Program-made: the position numbers and the translations under genes
Shown here: positions 28,764 to 39,644 of the stretch, one piece after another
Layout: every line of letters begins with the position of its first letter
Numbering within the stretch: position 1 is the stretch's first letter
Notes under the pieces: model-generated
Databases searched by the model: none
What the model was told of the DNA's origin: nothing
Seen by the model: the letters and a program-made list of their open reading frames with translations, nothing else
Virus record (IMG/VR): IMGVR_UViG_2718218361_000005
DNA from: a virus
Lineage: Duplodnaviria > Heunggongvirae > Uroviricota > Caudoviricetes
DNA length: 46,513 bases
Strand: one strand, 5' to 3'

Positions 28764-29846
28764 ATGAAAAAATTAACAGTGGCAATTTCTGCTGTAGCTG
28801 CATCAGTACTGATGGCGATGTCTGCTCAGGCAGCTGAAATTTATAATAAAGACAGTAACAAGCTGGATCTGTACGGGAAAGTTAATGCTAAGCACTACTT
28901 CTCCTCTAATGATGCAGATGATGGTGATACTACTTATGCCCGTCTTGGCTTCAAAGGTGAAACCCAAATCAACGATCAACTGACTGGTTTCGGTCAGTGG
29001 GAATATGAATTCAAAGGCAACCGCGCTGAATCTCAAGGTTCCTCCAAAGACAAAACCCGTCTTGCATTTGCAGGCCTGAAATTCGGTGACTACGGCTCAA
29101 TCGATTACGGCCGTAACTACGGTGTAGCATACGACATCGGTGCGTGGACTGACGTTCTGCCAGAATTCGGTGGCGATACCTGGACCCAAACAGATGTATT
29201 CATGACTGGTCGCACCACAGGTGTTGCAACTTATCGTAACAACGACTTCTTTGGTCTGGTTGATGGCCTGAACTTTGCAGCTCAGTATCAGGGCAAAAAT
29301 GACCGAAATGAAGTAACTGAAGCTAATGGCGATGGTTTCGGTTTCTCAACTACTTATGAGTATGAAGGATTCGGCGTGGGTGCAACCTATGCTAAATCTG
29401 ATCGCACTAATAATCAGGTTATCTACGGTAACAACGGTCTGAATGCTTCTGGTCAAAATGCTGAAGTATGGGCAGCTGGTCTGAAATATGATGCGAACAA
29501 CATCTATCTGGCCACCACCTATTCTGAAACCCAGAACATGACTGTTTTTGGTAATAACCATATTGCCAACAAAGCACAAAACTTCGAAGCTGTTGCACAA
29601 TATCAGTTCGACTTCGGCCTGCGTCCATCCGTTGCTTACCTGCATTCTAAAGGAAAAGACTTGGGTGTTTGGGGTGATCAGGACCTGGTTGAATATATTG
29701 ATGTAGGTGCAACCTATTACTTCAACAAAAATATGTCCACTTTTGTTGACTACAAAATCAACCTGATTGATAAGAGCGATTTCACGAAAGCATCTGGCGT
29801 TGCTACCGATGATATCGTTGCTGTAGGTATGGTTTACCAGTTCTAA
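28764..29846 (+). CDS. nmpC: General porin of the OmpC/OmpF/NmpC family (360 aa incl. signal peptide), apparently intact
   Basis: Signal peptide [23 protein letters not shown], porin beta-barrel ending ...VGMVYQF; located between Q and the lysis genes on the opposite strand, as nmpC in DLP12. Confidence 0.85.
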
Positions 29847-32036: not shown

Positions 32037-32145
32037 GAGTTGTTCAGGCTCCGATAGACTGGCCCCCTGAATCTCCAGACAACCAATATCACTTAAATAA
32101 GTGATAGTCTTAATACTAGTTTTTAGACTAGTCATTGGAGAGCAG

Positions 32146-32511
32146 ATGATTGATGTCTTAGGACCGGAGAAACGCAGACGGCGTACTACACAGGAAAAGA
32201 TCGCTATTGTTCAGCAGAGTTTTGAACCGGGAATGACGGTCTCCCTTGTTGCCCGGCAACACGGTGTGGCAGCCAGCCAGTTATTTCTCTGGCGCAAGCA
32301 ATACCAGGAGGGAAGTCTTACTGCTGTGGTCGCAGGAGAGCAGGTCGTTCCTGCCTCTGAACTTGCTGCTGCCATGAAGCAGATTAAAGAACTCCAGCGC
32401 CTGCTCGGCAAAAAAACGATGGAAAATGAACTCCTTAAAGAAGCCGTTGAATACGGGCGTGCAAAAAAGTGGATAGCGCACGCGCCCTTATTGCCCGGGG
32501 ATGGGGAGTAA
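32146..32511 (+). CDS. insC: IS2 transposase OrfA, InsC (121 aa)
   Basis: ATG at 32146 ([24 protein letters not shown]...), HTH, IS3-family orfA. Confidence 0.9.
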
Positions 32512-33374
32512 GCTTAGTCAGCCGTTGTCTCCGGGTGTCGCGTGCGCAGTTGCACGTAATTCTCAGACGAACCGATGACTGGAAAGATGGTCGCCGCAGC
32601 CGTCACTCAGATGATACGGATGTGCTTCTCCGTATACACCATGTTATCGGAGAGCTGCCCACGTATGGTTATCGTCGGGTATGGGCGCTGCTTCGCAGAC
32701 AGGCCGAACTTGATGGTATGCCTGCGATCAATGCCAAACGTATTTACCGGATCATGCGCCAGAATGCGCTGTTGCTTGAGCGAAAACCCGCTGTACCGCC
32801 ATCGAAACGGGCACATACCGGCAGAGTGGCTGTGAAAGAAAGTAATCAGCGATGGTGCTCTGACGGGTTCGAGTTCCGCTGTGATAACGGAGAAAAACTG
32901 CGAGTCACGTTCGCGCTGGACTGCTGTGACCGTGAGGCACTGCACTGGGCGGTCACTACGGGCGGCTTCAACAGTGAAACAGTACAGGACGTCATGCTGG
33001 GAGCGGTGGAACGCCGTTTCGGCAACGAGCTTCCGGCGTCTCCAGTAGAGTGGCTGACGGATAATGGTTCATGCTACCGGGCTAATGAAACACGGCAGTT
33101 TGCCCGGATGTTGGGGCTTGAACCGAAGAACACGGCGGTGCGGAGTCCGGAGAGTAACGGCATAGCAGAGAGCTTCGTGAAAACGATAAAGCGTGACTAC
33201 ATCAGTGTCATGCCCAAACCAGACGGGTTAACGGCAGCAAAGAACCTTGCAGAGGCATTCGAGCATTATAACGAATGGCATCCGCATAGTGCACTGGGTT
33301 ATCGCTCGCCACGGGAATATCTACGGCAGCAAGCCAGTAATGGGTTAAGTGATAACAGGTGTCTGGAAATATAG
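32469..33374 (+). CDS. insD: IS2 transposase OrfB, InsD (DDE integrase core); expressed as InsCD fusion by -1 frameshift
   Basis: 301-aa ORF overlapping the insC 3' end in the -1 frame; DDE transposase motifs. Confidence 0.9.
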
Positions 33375-33440: not shown

Positions 33441-34370
33441 TTATGGTTTATTTTCTAGCTCTGATTTTTTGAAAGCTTCTATCAGACGATTAGCATCTTC
33501 TGTACCACCAGGAAGCACGTTTGATTTTTTAAGAATATACGGTGGGAACTTTGTTGTTAAATATTCATGCTTAAACCATCTACGAAACTCTGACAATGCA
33601 GAATCAGGATAGGCATTAATGATCTGAGGATTGGAACTTGCCTGAAGAAAATCTTCAGGGTAATAATGCTCACAGTCTACTCTTTCTCCAAATTCTGTTG
33701 CTAACCCCTTTGCTTTCCAGTGACGCGCCCAGCAAGAACCAACACTGCCATCAGGTACGGTATGCTGATTAATCGCTAATCCAGCATTGATGAGATCTAC
33801 CATCATACCTGCAATTTCATTAAATATAATGAAATACCCATCAGGTATGGTTCCCTTATCTTTTAATAAAGATACTCTGTCATGGTAATGCCTCCACGGG
33901 TCCTCCGGTTGATATTTTAGCGCCTCGTATATAAATGTCTTGAGGCCTTTTTTAGCAAGCTCTCTGTAAGATCTAATTGCAGTCTCACTTTCTGCTTGTT
34001 TTGCTTCAAAGGCATAGTATTCAAGTATAGCCATGCATACAACATCTGGATAAGCATGGTACTCAACACCATTTCGAATTATTGGTATATAAAGTTTTTC
34101 ATCTGTAAAACCTTCATTAAGAAGATATGTACCAATAAAAGTCATTCTTCCTTTTTTGAAAATACCGTTCTCAACAGATTGAGCCCACTCATCGGTAATT
34201 TCCTTGATTCGCAAACGCTGAACACCACAAACATTTGCCAACCCATTCTGAGTAAGGTACGGAATTCCGTTATCGAGTACCCCCATTTCTATACCGTTAA
34301 TGACAGCCTCTTGCTTAACATCTAAGTCTAAAGGTATGGATCTGAGGGAGGTAGTTCTCTGTTGTGCCAT
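33441..34370 (-). CDS. Hypothetical 309-aa protein with N-terminal KilA-N/Bro-N-like segment; AT-rich accessory gene
   Basis: ATG at 34368-34370 preceded by AGGA (track ORF starts at an upstream TTG); N-terminal segment AVINGIEMGVLDNGIPYLTQNGLANVCGV resembles the KilA-N/Bro-N DNA-binding pattern; no function assigned. Confidence 0.6.
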   Translation of the reverse strand: MAQQRTTSLRSIPLDLDVKQEAVINGIEMGVLDNGIPYLTQNGLANVCGVQRLRIKEITDEWAQSVENGIFKKGRMTFIGTYLLNEGFTDEKLYIPIIRNGVEYHAYPDVVCMAILEYYAFEAKQAESETAIRSYRELAKKGLKTFIYEALKYQPEDPWRHYHDRVSLLKDKGTIPDGYFIIFNEIAGMMVDLINAGLAINQHTVPDGSVGSCWARHWKAKGLATEFGERVDCEHYYPEDFLQASSNPQIINAYPDSALSEFRRWFKHEYLTTKFPPYILKKSNVLPGGTEDANRLIEAFKKSELENKP

Positions 34371-34574
34371 TTTTGATCCTATCAATTTGAATTAATTGAA
34401 AAAATTAGGTGTTCCCTATGCATTAGAACACTCATCATACTAACCCCACTCGTTTGTGAAAAAAACTAATTTCACAATCAGTTAACTCTCAAAATAACTG
34501 ATATTCATACTCTCGCTATCCCATATATAGACATCCTTGTTTTAATACAACACTCATGGCTGGCGGCTATACTC

Positions 34575-35177: not shown

Positions 35178-35331
35178 AGTATCACCTCATCAGGTTAACC
35201 ATCACCACCAACGACGCCAATCGACTGGTGGTGAACTGTGCAAGGTTGGCGTAACCGGCTACTCAAACCCGGCGCTCCCGAAGAAGCCCTCACACAGCCC
35301 ACCATAATTTGGGCGTAGCCGTGCTTAGCGC

Positions 35332-35354
35332 ATAAAAAAACCGCTTAACGCGGT
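35332..35354 (-). terminator. Intrinsic terminator downstream of the small hydrophobic ORF
   Basis: Minus-strand hairpin accgc-gttaa-gcggt followed by a T7 run. Confidence 0.6.
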
Positions 35355-35440
35355 ATGCGTTGAGTAGTATTCCGGGACGCCAATCCCGTGTGCCGATTTT
35401 GCGGCAACGCACAGAATATAGCGCCGGATAAATAATGTCG

Positions 35441-35536
35441 TCAACCCTTGCAAATGGGTGGTGCGATGATCACTACTACCACCATAATCGCTCCAACTGT
35501 TGCAACTACTTTAGGCCAAGACATCACGATTTCCAT
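35441..35536 (-). CDS. Candidate small hydrophobic peptide (31 aa)
   Basis: Hand translation MEIVMSWPKVVATVGAIMVVVVIIAPPICKG; AAGGTGA 2-3 nt upstream of the ATG; lies between the right repeat copy and a terminator; no homolog recalled. Confidence 0.3.
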   Translation of the reverse strand: MEIVMSWPKVVATVGAIMVVVVIIAPPICKG

Positions 35537-35694: not shown

Positions 35695-35772
35695 CCAAGT
35701 GTCAAGTCTGCGGTGACTTAATTAAACAGCATACTAAGTTATATAATACTAATATCATAAATGTTAATTATT

Positions 35773-36177
35773 TTAACCATTCATAATCGTGACCATTATT
35801 AAGTCACCAAATGCATTTATTATCGATGATATGATTATAATGATAACACCCCATAGAATATTCCTTGATACTGCACGACCTTTTTCAGAGGTTGAGGTGA
35901 CGCTCCCATCTTGTTGTACCGAACCAAAACTAAATGCTTCTCGCCTTGATAGGTAGATACCTTCTGCAAAAAGCGGAGAAAGAGTAAGCAATGTGCCAAT
36001 CATTATGCCTAAACATCCGAATCGGGGAAGAAGTGACCAATCATTTTCTATATATGCATATATGCAACCACATATCATTAGCACCAACCAGAAGGCAACC
36101 ATTAGCTTCTTGTTTGCAAGCCATTTTAAATAAGGATCAAGCAGATGTTTATCATCTTTGCTTATTTTCGTTGTCAT
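35773..36177 (-). CDS. Hypothetical integral membrane protein (134 aa, ~3 TM helices), AT-rich accessory gene
   Basis: ATG at 36175-36177 preceded by AGAGG; hydrophobic segments LMVAFWLVLMICGCIYAYI, FGCLGIMIGTLLTLSPLF, ILWGVIIIIISSIINAF. Confidence 0.6.
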   Translation of the reverse strand: MTTKISKDDKHLLDPYLKWLANKKLMVAFWLVLMICGCIYAYIENDWSLLPRFGCLGIMIGTLLTLSPLFAEGIYLSRREAFSFGSVQQDGSVTSTSEKGRAVSRNILWGVIIIIISSIINAFGDLIMVTIMNG

Positions 36178-36533
36178 ATAGCCTCTATTATTCAAAGTGT
36201 ATTATATCTTAACAATAAATAACTCAGATTTAAGTGAATGCTCGAGTTTAGCAATTCTTCCCCTCCTTCTATATTTTTGCTACCTACGGTATCCAATAGC
36301 TTACCTGATCTTACCCAGCCTCTTGCAAAATTGGTGACGAATCATAACCGGTTCGGATTACATCTAGTACTCTATATCAGTTAATTTATAAATAACTTCG
36401 CGTTGCTCTATGCAAATTAATACAATCAGTTCTTGCGTAAGTGCCTCCACCTGATCCAGTTATCGTCCTACCGCAATTGGGATTTTATGTGCACTGTATC
36501 CCAGTAAAAATTATGAATACATTATAGACAACA

Positions 36534-36562
36534 GAAATAAAAAACCCAGAGCCAACTGGGTT
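36534..36562 (-). terminator. Intrinsic terminator downstream of the secreted-protein gene
   Basis: Hairpin aaccca-gagccaac-tgggtt followed on the minus strand by ttttatttctg. Confidence 0.6.
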
Positions 36563-36579
36563 CATATGAGATTTTTTTG

Positions 36580-37074
36580 TTATTTCCAATTGCAAGACTG
36601 TGAAATTTTTTCCACAACCTTATCAATCTCAGACAAGTCAAACTCAACTACTTGCATAGTTGATCCATAAGGTTCAAACCCAAAAATAGCTTTTTTATGC
36701 TTAGCCAAGGTCTTTATAAATTGTATTGGTTGTGGAGCAAATGCAGAATCACCGCCTTCCCCACCTCCCCAAACACTCTTGATCGGCTTTCCGCCATCTA
36801 ACCGCACTGTAATTCTTGGGTTGTCCGACCCCATATAATCATTGAATGATAAATAGGCATCTGTTTTGTTATCACTACAACGCAACACCAGTGAAGTTGC
36901 ACGATCAGTACCTGCTTTGTTATATGAATCTGGTGATAAGTTAAGAGCCACAAAGTCAGTCTGGTCAGTCATTTTATTTATCTCAGACTTTGTTATCCAC
37001 GGCCCTAACTTCTCTACACCAGCATTTGCTGTAAACGAGGCACTTATGACAAAGGCTAAAATAAATTTTCTCAT
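36580..37074 (-). CDS. Hypothetical secreted/periplasmic protein (164 aa) with cleavable signal peptide, AT-rich accessory gene
   Basis: Strong SD AAGGAG; signal peptide MRKFILAFVISASFTANA; two Cys; no homolog recalled. Confidence 0.6.
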   Translation of the reverse strand: MRKFILAFVISASFTANAGVEKLGPWITKSEINKMTDQTDFVALNLSPDSYNKAGTDRATSLVLRCSDNKTDAYLSFNDYMGSDNPRITVRLDGGKPIKSVWGGGEGGDSAFAPQPIQFIKTLAKHKKAIFGFEPYGSTMQVVEFDLSEIDKVVEKISQSCNWK

Positions 37075-37220
37075 AACCCTATCTCCTTGGATTCAAAGAA
37101 CTAAATATTATCAAGTCTCTTGCCACTAGAAAACCCACTTTACTACCAAACTCTGACGGCATTCCTGAAAATTCGGTTCATACTCACTTGCCCCGCCCTA
37201 TCATCCTGAGTAGCTAACCG

Positions 37221-37394
37221 TTAAACAAACGTTCGCCAGACCTTACCATCAATGACTAAGATTCCTGCCCGCGCCATTTTAGCCGCAGCCTGATTTATGC
37301 TGGTTACTGTCACACCTGTTACCGCAGCAACGTCCTGCGCACAGAAGTTCTTATGAGTCCCCAGGTAATGAATAATTGCCTCTTTGCCCGTCAT
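37221..37394 (-). CDS. ren: Ren-like protein, C-terminally shortened (57 aa versus ~96 aa in lambda)
   Basis: Hand translation MTGKEAIIHYLGTHKNFCAQDVAAVTGVTVTSINQAAAKMARAGILVIDGKVWRTFV; start overlaps the P stop as in lambda; AT-rich sequence follows the stop. Confidence 0.7.
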   Translation of the reverse strand: MTGKEAIIHYLGTHKNFCAQDVAAVTGVTVTSINQAAAKMARAGILVIDGKVWRTFV

Positions 37395-38092
37395 ACACTT
37401 GCTCCTTTCAGCCCAAACTTAGCTTTGATTTCTGCGATCTTCGCCAGAGCCTGTGCACGATTTAGAGGTCTACCGCCCATGACAGGAAGTTGTTTTACTG
37501 GTTCAGGTATCGCCTCACCACGGTTAATTCGCGCGGTCATACAGGACAGTTCATCGGCAGCCTTGCGCCGTAATTCCGCGTCAGTCAACGCATTGGCCCG
37601 CATGTTCTGATACAGGTTGGTAACCAGCCAGTAGTGCGCGTTTGATTTCCACGGATAAGACTCTGCATCCGGATACAGACCACGCTTCCGGCAATACTCG
37701 TAAACCATATCAACCAGCTCGCTGACGTTTGGCAGCCCGGCGGTAACGGATGCTTCTTCCCGGCACCATGCAACAAACTGCCCGGGTGATGGCAGAAATG
37801 GTCTATTCTGCCGACGGGCAACACGCATTCCGGCGCTCACCTGTTCCATCGTGGTGATCCCGTTTTCCCGGAAAGCCAGAACCCACTGGCGGCGGATTTC
37901 GTTCAGTTCGTTCTGGTCACGATTAGCCAGGCTCGCCGGGAAAGTTGCCAGTAACTGGCTGAATACACCGTTGATGATCTGCGCTACCTGCTGTACCTGC
38001 GGCTTTTCGTCGTACTGTTCCGGCATGTTGTTAGCGATCCGACGCATCTGCTCACGGTCAAAGTTAATCATCTGTGCGGCGATGTTTTTCAT
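37391..38092 (-). CDS. P: Replication protein P (DnaB helicase loader), 233 aa
   Basis: Matches lambda P. Confidence 0.95.
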   Translation of the reverse strand: MKNIAAQMINFDREQMRRIANNMPEQYDEKPQVQQVAQIINGVFSQLLATFPASLANRDQNELNEIRRQWVLAFRENGITTMEQVSAGMRVARRQNRPFLPSPGQFVAWCREEASVTAGLPNVSELVDMVYEYCRKRGLYPDAESYPWKSNAHYWLVTNLYQNMRANALTDAELRRKAADELSCMTARINRGEAIPEPVKQLPVMGGRPLNRAQALAKIAEIKAKFGLKGASV

Positions 38093-39018
38093 AGATCCAC
38101 CCCGTAAATCCAGTCTGTGTTTGTCAGGTCGAGTTTTGGTTTGCTAGCTGTCACGCCTGCCTGTTGCTTGTTACGGTTGATTTCGAGTTGGGTCCACTTG
38201 TCGCGGAGTTTGGCCGGACTTAGCACGTTACCGGACCAGAAGTTGTCCTGGCATGCCCAGCGGAACAGCACGCACATGTCGCGGTGGTTACGTCCGTCAC
38301 GTTCACGCATCAGGCGGATATCGTTAGCCCACCCTGCAAAATTCGGTTTTCTGGCTGATGGCGCGATGGTCTTCACCATGTCAAACATCCACTCTGCGGC
38401 GGTCAGGTCTTCTGCTGTCCCCCACCTGCTGCCGCTCTGAATTGCAGCATCTGGTTTCTCCACAGGAAGGTCGTTTTCTGGCTGGTCAGAGGATTCGCCA
38501 GAATTCTCGGACGAAAAAGGTTTTATATTGTCTTTTGTTAGTTTGTCTTTTGTGTTTACCTGATTCGGGTAAACGTCTTTACCTGATTTGGGTAAACTTT
38601 TTTTACCTGATTCAGGTAAATTTACCTCTTTCAGGTAAACTTTATTTTTCTTACCTGATTCGGGTAATGTTGACCATTCACTGACCACATTATTAATGCC
38701 GGTATTCCGCCCGCTCTGAATAAGAATCCCACGCTTTACCAGAACACTTTTTGCAGCAGAACACTTGTGCGGCAATATCCCGGTCAATTCGGACAGTTGC
38801 TCGTTGCTCACCCAATCCAGTTTTTTATTAAAGCCATATGTTTTGCGCATGACAGCTAGGAAGACCAGAAGCTGGTGCTGTGTTAATCCGGCCAGCATCA
38901 CAGCTTCCAGCAACTCATTTGCAATGCGCGTATAACCATCATCGAGATCTGCCACGCGCGGCTCCTTTTGTGCCGCATCCGGCACTGGAAAATTGAATAT
39001 CTCAGCAGTGTTTGCCAT
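38089..39018 (-). CDS. O: Replication initiator O (309 aa), N-terminal iteron-binding domain differs from lambda, C-terminal P-interacting domain lambda-like
   Basis: ATG at 39016-39018 preceded by GGGAGG; N-terminus MANTAEIFNFP... resembles lambda O; ori iterons inside the gene; overlaps the P start. Confidence 0.85.
   Translation of the reverse strand: MANTAEIFNFPVPDAAQKEPRVADLDDGYTRIANELLEAVMLAGLTQHQLLVFLAVMRKTYGFNKKLDWVSNEQLSELTGILPHKCSAAKSVLVKRGILIQSGRNTGINNVVSEWSTLPESGKKNKVYLKEVNLPESGKKSLPKSGKDVYPNQVNTKDKLTKDNIKPFSSENSGESSDQPENDLPVEKPDAAIQSGSRWGTAEDLTAAEWMFDMVKTIAPSARKPNFAGWANDIRLMRERDGRNHRDMCVLFRWACQDNFWSGNVLSPAKLRDKWTQLEINRNKQQAGVTASKPKLDLTNTDWIYGVDL
38556..38670. repeat. Replication origin iterons (five ~19-20-bp repeats, TTTACCTGATTCGGGTAAAC-type) with adjacent A/T-rich region, inside O
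   Basis: Repeats at 38556-38575, 38579-38598, 38602-38620, 38621-38640, 38651-38670; A/T-rich 38520-38555. Confidence 0.8.
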
Positions 39019-39104
39019 AATTCCTCCCGCAATGAGTGTGTTACGATTTGCACCTGAAAGTCGGTTCTGTTCCAGCAGACCGGCTTTCGCCATTTCTGAA
39101 CCTG

Positions 39105-39644
39105 TCATATCGCCCCCAGCATGGTAGTAACCATCGCCATCAATGGACCAGCCAGATCTGGGTCCACACGAAACATCGACACAATACCTTCACTAATTTC
39201 CTTCAGTTTCTGGTGGCGTGGTGCGTTGAGAATGACAGCCTGTTTTGCCTCACTGAGTTCCTTTTCCATTTCAGCCAACCTAGCCATGAAGCTATCCTGC
39301 TCAACCAGGTAACCGCGATATTCCAGCGGTAGTACCGCCAGAATTGCCGGGGTCAGTTCACGCACGTTATTTCGGTATTTTTCAGAATCGAATTTGTTAT
39401 CGAGGAAGCGGAACAGCTTCTGGCGTGCACGGCTGACATCATCAGGGAAATCGATGGTGCCGCCGCCCTGCTCCCGATACTCATTCACAATGAGTGTGGC
39501 AACGACATCCTGATTATCTTCAGCCGACCAAGCGCGGACGGCATCACGGATTTTTTCGTGGCCTGGCACCTGTTTTGTTTGAGAACGATTTATCACCGCA
39601 GTCGGGCTAAATCCGCTAGTCTGTTGGTATGTAAGTGGTTGCAT
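39105..39644 (-). CDS. YdaT-like early regulator in the cII position (179 aa)
   Basis: SD AAGGAG; motifs NEYREQGGG and LTPAILAVLPLEYRGYL resemble remembered Rac YdaT; located between the cro-like gene and O. Confidence 0.55.
   Translation of the reverse strand: MQPLTYQQTSGFSPTAVINRSQTKQVPGHEKIRDAVRAWSAEDNQDVVATLIVNEYREQGGGTIDFPDDVSRARQKLFRFLDNKFDSEKYRNNVRELTPAILAVLPLEYRGYLVEQDSFMARLAEMEKELSEAKQAVILNAPRHQKLKEISEGIVSMFRVDPDLAGPLMAMVTTMLGAI

Follow-up and report, generated by a model that had tools for sequence, protein, structure and literature searches.

The question raised by this locus is whether the AT-rich stretch behind a shortened ren gene in a lambdoid prophage is one foreign block with two genes, as an earlier note made from the sequence had proposed, or a stack of separate acquisitions, and what the encoded proteins might do. 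The stretch lies at positions 35700–37220 of the 46,513-nucleotide (nt) IMG/VR record IMGVR_UViG_2718218361_000005 (hereafter the window, that is, the whole stretch of DNA analyzed), which is a complete lambdoid prophage read in reverse. It encodes a predicted exported protein of 164 amino acids (aa), here called the VasI-like protein, and a 134-aa protein with three predicted transmembrane (TM) helices, the product of what we call the membrane gene; the coordinates of these and all other features are collected in Table 1. We are confident that the AT-rich stretch comprises two cargo cassettes that are independent of each other and of which one is a true moron in the sense of Juhala and Hendrix as summarized in PMC3594210. 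On balance, we favor the explanation that these stacked, independent cassettes encode proteins that would be made in the lysogen and would act at the cell envelope; in other respects, the feature is the mosaicism usual in lambdoid phages, at a cargo site of a known kind. The region is identical (100%) to its counterparts in Escherichia coli S21 and H14, and Escherichia phage IdasGreatGrand, an isolated phage with a complete genome record in which all of these genes are annotated as "hypothetical", carries both genes plus the DNA between them at 99% identity. The marked AT-richness described previously was borne out by a GC check, with a GC content of 0.374 compared to the window mean of 0.507 and 0.536 for the replication gene P; for the coding sequences (CDSs) of the 164-aa and 134-aa proteins, the values are 0.39 and 0.37, respectively, and only 9% and 6% of the window's 500-nt windows are lower.

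The two genes are not a functional pair and are inherited independently. They do not form a unit because the boundaries of the two cassettes leave 295 bp of orphan DNA between them and because each is seldom found with the other, whichever of the two is taken as the starting point. The common ren-VasI cassette ceases to match at position 36503 (query position 718), and the match to the membrane-gene cassette of a P4-like satellite begins at 36207, so that the DNA shared by each cassette ends between the genes. In the two samples used throughout, 5426 complete E. coli genomes and 80 IMG/VR loci containing the VasI-like gene, the membrane gene is also present in 3 of the 84 E. coli genomes that have the VasI-like gene and in one of the 41 lambdoid viral loci; this sole viral locus (L112) is the window-type arrangement, on the same contig as L063, and none of the loci with the VasI-like gene in a tail module has the membrane gene. 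Conversely, the VasI-like gene was not found within 5 kb in any of the 32 loci (21 viral, 2 genomic and 9 from look-ups) with distant relatives of the membrane gene (41–77% identical). The intervening spacer was detected only in those 3 of the 5426 E. coli genomes and in phage IdasGreatGrand, with no similarity beyond the same three E. coli genomes even in a distant blastn search. Comparison with the satellite locus (L019) showed that the spacer does not derive from the 129-aa gene located ahead of the satellite copy.

A cooperating two-gene envelope system, acquired as a block, would account for the adjacency, shared orientation and shared AT-richness of the genes and for their joint presence in S21, H14, IdasGreatGrand and, as a degraded copy, E. 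coli 2018-05-2CC. With a terminator as well as the orphan DNA between the genes, and with the pairing so rare and never seen among distant relatives, we regard such a system as most improbable, and the two-gene block of the earlier note is not upheld. The 385-bp spacer given in that note fits an upstream TTG start; to the ATG of the 134-aa reading, the distance is 402 nt. What survives in the degraded copy (L008; NZ_AP027877 1379524..1380407) is the VasI-like gene's 3' part, then the spacer, then the 5' part of the membrane gene; a truncated dsdA adjoins it on one side and an IS3 on the other, and the whole is a prophage remnant left by a deletion.

The upstream boundary of the foreign DNA was located by comparison with phage lambda. 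Ren indeed stops after 57 codons, compared to 96 aa in lambda, but the foreign DNA does not replace the end of the gene at this point, as had been thought. DNA alignment with lambda ren attributes the truncation to a TAC-to-TAA change at codon 58, with a 1-nt deletion further on, and lambda ren homology persists at the DNA level to about nt 265 of 291. Hence, the foreign DNA starts near 37130, not 37220, and, judging from this alignment, displaces just the last ~25 nt of ren. RefSeq accordingly lists a 269-nt ren pseudogene ("protein ren, frameshifted; internal stop"). The short Ren is a recurrent form and has its own PHROG, the 57-position profile phrog_7054, which it matches at 8.9e-42 (compared to 2.4e-20 for the Ren-like phrog_142). 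The "ren" of DLP12-type prophages is commonly a 57-codon, nonsense-truncated form.

The VasI-like cassette has, by several features readable in its DNA, the anatomy of a classic moron: insertion between genes that are adjacent in lambda, composition, a terminator, a candidate promoter, and relatives that recur as a unit elsewhere. In lambda, NinB directly follows ren with nothing between them, and in relatives of the cassette the flanking genes encode a tail assembly chaperone on one side and the tape-measure protein on the other. Base composition deviates in both cassettes (GC 0.377 for the VasI-like and 0.344 for the membrane cassette, to be set against the values for P and the window given above). 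The VasI-like gene has its own terminator, as the earlier note had observed, with an 8-bp GC-rich stem (-11.4 kcal/mol, z -3.1), and the membrane gene lacks one. As for a promoter, only motifs are present (TGATAATAT in the window and TGnTAGGAT in relatives for the VasI-like gene; TATAAT for the membrane gene), and a simple scan calls neither. The Shine-Dalgarno (SD) sequence AAGGAG, 8 nt before the VasI-like ATG, is strong; that of the membrane gene (AGAGG, 4-nt spacing) is moderate, so that the strong SD sequences claimed for both genes apply to one. Likewise, the description of both genes as autonomous promoter-gene-terminator units suits the VasI-like gene, with its promoter still a candidate, and fails for the membrane gene, most of whose relatives are packed in early operons.

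A stretch that starts at ren and extends 77 nt beyond the VasI-like stop codon is present in the 84 E. coli genomes mentioned above at 97–100% identity, and 41 of the 80 IMG/VR loci show the same P-Ren57-VasI-like arrangement at 98–99% identity. Downstream of the terminator in these lambdoid loci, there are at least three different fillers besides the single membrane-gene case, namely, a pair of genes for 108-aa and 181-aa proteins or, ahead of ybcN, other DNA of ~1 kb or ~1.5 kb. The other 39 loci contain genes that are 55–80% identical and reside in quite different siphophage prophages, at a site bordered by the tail-chaperone (DUF6246) and tape-measure genes, except for seven loci (L096-L102) in which no chaperone match was found; in L072 and L074, the locus ends or no match is found ahead of a tape-measure gene. 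The chaperone/tape-measure site is also that of HK97 gene 15, the founding moron, which codes for a prophage-expressed exclusion protein (PMC3594210). Antirepressor-like cargo is often found beside the VasI-like gene in the tail-site loci. More remote VasI-like genes (25–27% identity) are found in phages of Pasteurella and Brucella and, in P2-like prophages, near the attachment-site or cargo ends. Altogether, ~1.5% of complete E. coli genomes have the VasI-like moron, which is also found in many prophages of Klebsiella, Pantoea, Serratia and Salmonella.

The expression signals recur with the gene. A terminator is found at the equivalent place in 73 of the 79 scorable cassettes, and given that the stem sequences differ, it is independently maintained. 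The pattern TGnTAnnnT is present within 110 nt upstream in 66 of the 80 loci, and most of the diverged cassettes have TGnTAGGAT ~40 nt before the ATG, with variable flanks (31 distinct upstream sequences). In the seven loci L096-L102 (57% identity), six cassettes have no terminator, and a second small open reading frame (ORF), starting MKKYIFLIFILVLAAGGF..., directly follows the VasI-like gene; its product looks exported or membrane-bound, and the arrangement would be a two-gene version of the moron.

The earlier note had recognized neither protein. The 164-aa product can now be identified as a divergent member of the VasI/TagO family (phrog_1848), for which modeling predicts an IalB-like fold. 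The predicted signal peptide corresponds to a short, basic and hydrophobic, signal-peptide-like N-terminal segment, MRKFILAFVISASFTANA, directly followed by G, with no hydrophobic stretch of TM length in the protein; the AlphaFold2 (AF2) predicted local distance difference test (pLDDT) score is below 50 over residues 1-17. The AF2 model (pLDDT 78.8, predicted TM-score (pTM) 0.74) consists of a beta-rich domain and two helices. A Foldseek search of the PDB with this model, one of the checks proposed earlier, returned nothing below E 0.1, a profile search of PDB sequences gave no match, and Pfam IalB was not matched either. The profile phrog_1848 ("unknown function") matches the full length of the protein at 5.4e-70, and Pfam VasI is matched at E<=0.01 by each of the 25 family members in the alignment (the best at 4.4e-9). 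The family alignment features two invariant cysteines, C66 and C161, which probably form a disulfide, and a highly conserved core, GFEPYGSTMQVVEFDL. The protein is clearly not an equivalog in the sense of the TIGR03360 model (13.6 bits versus a cut-off of 124.2). A Cor/Llp-like lipoprotein was considered and rejected because there is no lipobox cysteine, the signal ending in ANA before G.

RefSeq names this protein "T6SS-associated protein TagO", which brings up a possible role in a type VI secretion system (T6SS): a phage-borne accessory that boosts the lysogen's T6SS or shields the envelope from T6SS attack, and thus serves as a competition factor. The uniform Pfam VasI matches within the family agree with this name, and most of the host genera of the close relatives commonly carry T6SS. 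However, no T6SS gene was found near any prophage copy examined, all of which are in the nin region or the tail module, and the remote relatives occur in phages of Pasteurella and Brucella, which, to our knowledge, are not hosts known for T6SS; these two observations weaken the T6SS interpretation. In Vibrio cholerae, secretion of Hcp and VgrG does not require VasI (VCA0118), an exported protein, whereas amoebae and E. coli are fully killed only when it is present (PMC3166118), which speaks for an accessory function, but the match of the phage protein covers only the C-terminal ~110 residues of the VasI profile, with the TIGR03360 score far under its cut-off, and a 2026 review gives the function of TagO/VasI as unknown (PMC13584744), which we count against this interpretation. 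We consider it unlikely. On prophage genes, the TagO name is a homology label and not evidence of a T6SS. A literature search for phage-borne TagO/VasI morons or DUF3121 found nothing relevant.

For the VasI-like protein, we tentatively prefer, at less than even probability, a role as a periplasmic blocker of an incoming envelope-crossing machine. Following export to the periplasm by the Sec pathway, it would, by analogy with HK97 gp15, cause superinfection exclusion at the DNA-injection or tape-measure step. This proposal is based on the moron anatomy, on the recurrent gp15 slot beside tape-measure genes, and on the presence of the gene at cargo sites of several types of temperate phages. Both proteins would be made in the lysogen, and N-antiterminated transcription from pR, reading through terminators, would add expression of both genes during lytic growth. 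The roles that the earlier note had named for lysogen-expressed genes at this position, namely, superinfection exclusion, receptor masking or envelope modification, are plausible.

The membrane gene presents a different picture. Three hydrophobic helices were found in its product, in line with the ~3 TM helices counted before, and the AF2 model consists of three long helices. Pfam, NCBIfam, PHROGs and PADLOC yielded nothing but a 16.5-bit match to Blh, at chance level, PDB sequences gave no match, and a Foldseek comparison of the model with BFVD was uninformative; for this protein, the earlier non-recognition stands. Matches of both proteins to housekeeping-type families, which the earlier note had named as telling against its view, were not found. 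The family is small: 42 close homologs in Enterobacteriaceae and only 55 members, nearly all of ~130 aa, in a profile search of 1.84 billion representatives. Nevertheless, the conservation pattern indicates a real gene, with the invariant motifs S..D.H..D at the N-terminus, TLLTLSP.F in TM2 and SS..N.F.D at the end of TM3, and further invariant residues T96, R101 and N106 in a long loop. Applying the positive-inside rule would place the N-terminus and the loop of 33 residues in the cytoplasm, giving an N-in, C-out topology with three TM helices, and the conserved polar motifs are predicted to face the cytoplasm. A holin or other lysis role was rejected because the gene was never seen in a lysis cassette among the contexts inspected. 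Some family members are fused to, or directly precede, a second ~150-aa domain (P0074, P0029; L116 4983..5849; L119 708..1633), which contains a TM helix and a ...GQDDSEWSFAQFANIML... region and has no Pfam match; likewise, no Pfam domain was detected in ten remote or fused members of the family.

In E. coli, the membrane gene was found in 3 of the 5426 genomes, with one copy cut by IS3, and a scan of genome contigs for the family yielded 2 loci only. The mobile cassette includes 30 nt ahead of the CDS and 44 nt behind it, and its 77%-identical copy resides between int and psu of the P4-like satellite, an interval described as a defense hotspot (Rousset et al., PMC9122126). No convincing terminator, that is, no hairpin with a U-run, was found directly downstream of the gene in the window. 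Well downstream of it, in both the window and the satellite locus, there is a 45-nt stretch (87% identical; 5849..5893 in L019) that contains a hairpin followed by a U-run (-10.9 kcal/mol) and could be a common terminator or a recombination joint. The satellite copy also retains the perfect TATAAT box, which is absent from the tightly packed copies in Enterobacter and Pantoea prophages. The satellite copy in the hotspot, the conserved TATAAT box and the defense-rich neighborhood in the window suggest a function in inner-membrane exclusion or defense, which we tentatively favor, albeit at a rather low probability.

In most relatives, however, the gene is tightly packed in an early operon, without a promoter or terminator of its own: in the pR/nin operon of Enterobacter prophages, 28 nt after the preceding gene, and in the pL operon of Pantoea prophages, after RecT, with the stop codon of the membrane gene in both cases overlapping the start of a DNA_pol3_theta (Hot-like) gene; other copies are located just upstream of NinB-like genes. 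These contexts favor an early lytic function, such as host takeover or a link to replication or repair, with the location behind the spacer in the window being a recombination accident. The E. coli and satellite versions do not fit well, having lost the theta-like partner (a search of the window for a theta-like gene found none) and kept the TATAAT box, with one copy in the defense hotspot. Moreover, early expression would also suit an exclusion protein such as T4 Imm. A lytic-cycle role linked to the theta-like partner is, in our assessment, about as likely as exclusion or defense, each having a rather low probability.

Non-functionality is a further alternative, under which the block would be decaying junk, with its ORFs meaningless relics in a degenerating prophage; it draws on the truncated ren, the IS3 element in the nin region, the kil pseudogene in the identical S21 copy and the orphan spacer. 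Given that both ORFs are intact, that their homologs at 41–80% identity preserve many invariant residues and the protein length, and that the same block is present in an isolated phage, this alternative has, in our view, very little probability. The alignments of both families suggest purifying selection.

Several observations weigh against the favored explanation of independent cassettes with lysogen-made, envelope-acting products. Expression and promoters of both genes are read from motifs only, and the candidate TGATAATAT falls below the threshold of the simple -35/-10 promoter scan, which calls nothing upstream of the VasI-like gene. The match of the VasI-like protein to Pfam VasI (PF11319; residues 56-163) scores 26.3 bits, 0.2 bit under the gathering threshold of 26.5, and V. 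cholerae VasI, the one relative studied by experiment, acts with a T6SS and not against phages (PMC3166118). PADLOC-DB v2 and the PHROG categories give no likeness to catalogued exclusion or defense proteins for either protein. For the membrane gene, a theta-like gene (HolE/Hot-like) abuts or overlaps it in 14 of the 23 independent loci (among relatives L002-L007, L022-L024 and L113-L132), at 41–67% protein identity, and this pairing, together with the packed early-operon relatives, suggests expression in the lytic cycle and not a gene for lysogenic conversion.

Should either protein protect lysogens, a new exclusion or defense family would be added, and a phenotype of the VasI-like moron would be the first lead on what the VasI/TagO accessory family of T6SS clusters does. 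A speculative generalization, which seems to us rather improbable, is that phrog_1848 and its VasI/IalB-fold relatives are a widespread and so far overlooked class of prophage-expressed periplasmic guards against genome injection or against other contractile or tape-measure-driven penetration, such as that of T6SS or tailocins, and that the three-TM family is a single-gene inner-membrane defense. If correct, the first part would explain the placement by tape-measure genes and at P2 and lambdoid cargo sites and would hint at the role of VasI in T6SS clusters, and the second would imply that the three-TM family moves between lambdoid early operons and P4 satellite hotspots.

The junction between ren and ybcN/nin is a cargo hotspot in which several cassettes have accumulated independently, the two genes studied here being the first two. 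The downstream backbone, ylcH-ybcN-ninE-ybcO-rusA-ylcG-quuD-porin, is of the DLP12 type. Beyond the membrane gene, there is an RNA-control module with Rfam matches to C4 antisense RNA (72.7 bits; gathering score 45), isrK (60.7 bits; gathering score 50) and, under the gathering score, c4 a1b1 targets (40.6 bits), an organization similar to the P1/P7 immI or Gifsy-1 IsrK arrangements. It is located upstream of an antirepressor-like gene, and in other prophages, Ant-like genes also accompany the VasI-like gene where it occupies the cargo site in the tail module. With the BstA abortive-infection gene that follows (PADLOC BstA, 3.8e-121; phrog_6287, 1.9e-136), the nin interval holds at least one recognized defense gene. 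Next is an IS3-family element; K-12 DLP12 likewise has an IS3, but within renD. The porin gene beside the Q antiterminator gene is the intact counterpart of the IS5-disrupted nmpC of DLP12. No tRNA was detected in the window by a tRNA scan.

Table 1. Coordinates of the features of the AT-rich stretch and its surroundings in the window
Feature	Position	Strand	Remarks
O	39108..38089	-	Early-right operon; ORF list
P	38092..37391	-	Early-right operon; ren start overlaps P end
Short ren ORF, 57 aa	37394..37221	-	ORF list; phrog_7054, phrog_142
Untranslated ren remnant	37127..37220	-	Past the codon-58 TAA and 1-nt deletion; aligns with lambda ren
VasI-like cassette	~37130..36503	-	Candidate promoter, strong SD, gene, terminator
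Candidate extended -10 element TGATAATAT	37113..37105	-	~30 nt before the VasI-like ATG; read from the sequence
VasI/TagO-family gene, 164 aa, predicted exported	37074..36580	-	SD AAGGAG at 37088..37083
Intrinsic terminator of the VasI-like gene	36563..36534	-	Hairpin 36563..36542, then U-run
Orphan AT-rich spacer, 295 bp	36208..36502	.	No credible ORF; outside both conserved cassettes
Mobile membrane-gene cassette	36207..35729	-	blastn 77% over 479 nt to P4-like satellite locus L019
TATAAT, perfect box, candidate promoter	36206..36201	-	24 nt before the membrane-gene ATG; no good -35
Gene of 134-aa three-TM protein, unnamed family	36177..35773	-	ORF list; hydrophobic helices ~23-45, 53-74, 102-132
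45-nt stretch shared with L019	35586..35630	-	Hairpin, then U-run
Promoter-like site of RNA-control module	35444..35415		
RNA-control module	35224..35421	-	Upstream of antirepressor gene; Rfam matches
Terminator-like site of RNA-control module	35354..35340		
Antirepressor-like protein gene, 200 aa	34575..35177	-	Bro-N + P22_AR_C
BstA abortive-infection gene	33441..34385	-	GC 0.386
IS3-family transposase	~32100..33374	+	Two overlapping ORFs, 136 + 301 aa; annotation of identical S21 prophage
OmpC/NmpC-like porin gene	28764..29846	+	Annotation of identical S21 copy

Comparison with known systems places the two proteins as follows. T4 Imm, P22 SieA and lambda/P22 SieB are small inner-membrane exclusion proteins encoded in early or immunity-proximal regions; the 134-aa protein is comparable in size and membrane location but has no detectable sequence or profile similarity to them. 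The structural counterparts of the VasI-like protein, IalB (invasion-associated locus B) of Bartonella (PDB 3dtd) and a component of the flagellar T-ring of Vibrio (PDB 8z5n_A), differ from it in sequence (9–10% identity), and their functions do not transfer to it. VasI/TagO itself (VCA0118; PF11319, TIGR03360) is homologous over the C-terminal ~110 residues, and both proteins are exported, in our case by prediction; the window protein differs in its length (164 aa versus 227 aa), in scoring under the equivalog and Pfam cut-offs and in having no T6SS genes nearby. K-12 DLP12, in which the ren-ybcN interval is occupied by emrE, ylcJ, ybcK, the periplasmic-protein gene ybcL and ybcM, is the same prophage type with the same hotspot, flanked by the same ybcN-ninE-ybcO-rusA-ylcG-quuD-porin genes, and also combines a small membrane protein (EmrE) with a periplasmic one (YbcL), whereas the genes are unrelated, the cargo of the window being the VasI-like gene, the three-TM gene, the c4-Ant module, BstA and IS3. 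HK97 gene 15 differs from the VasI-like cassette in its location, in the tail operon instead of after ren, and in its product, a YebO-like inner-membrane protein without sequence similarity to the VasI-like protein, which is predicted to be soluble, periplasmic and beta-rich, but in both cases a small envelope-protein gene of deviant composition forms a unit with its terminator and a promoter, the latter a candidate in the VasI-like cassette, within a lambdoid or siphophage genome.

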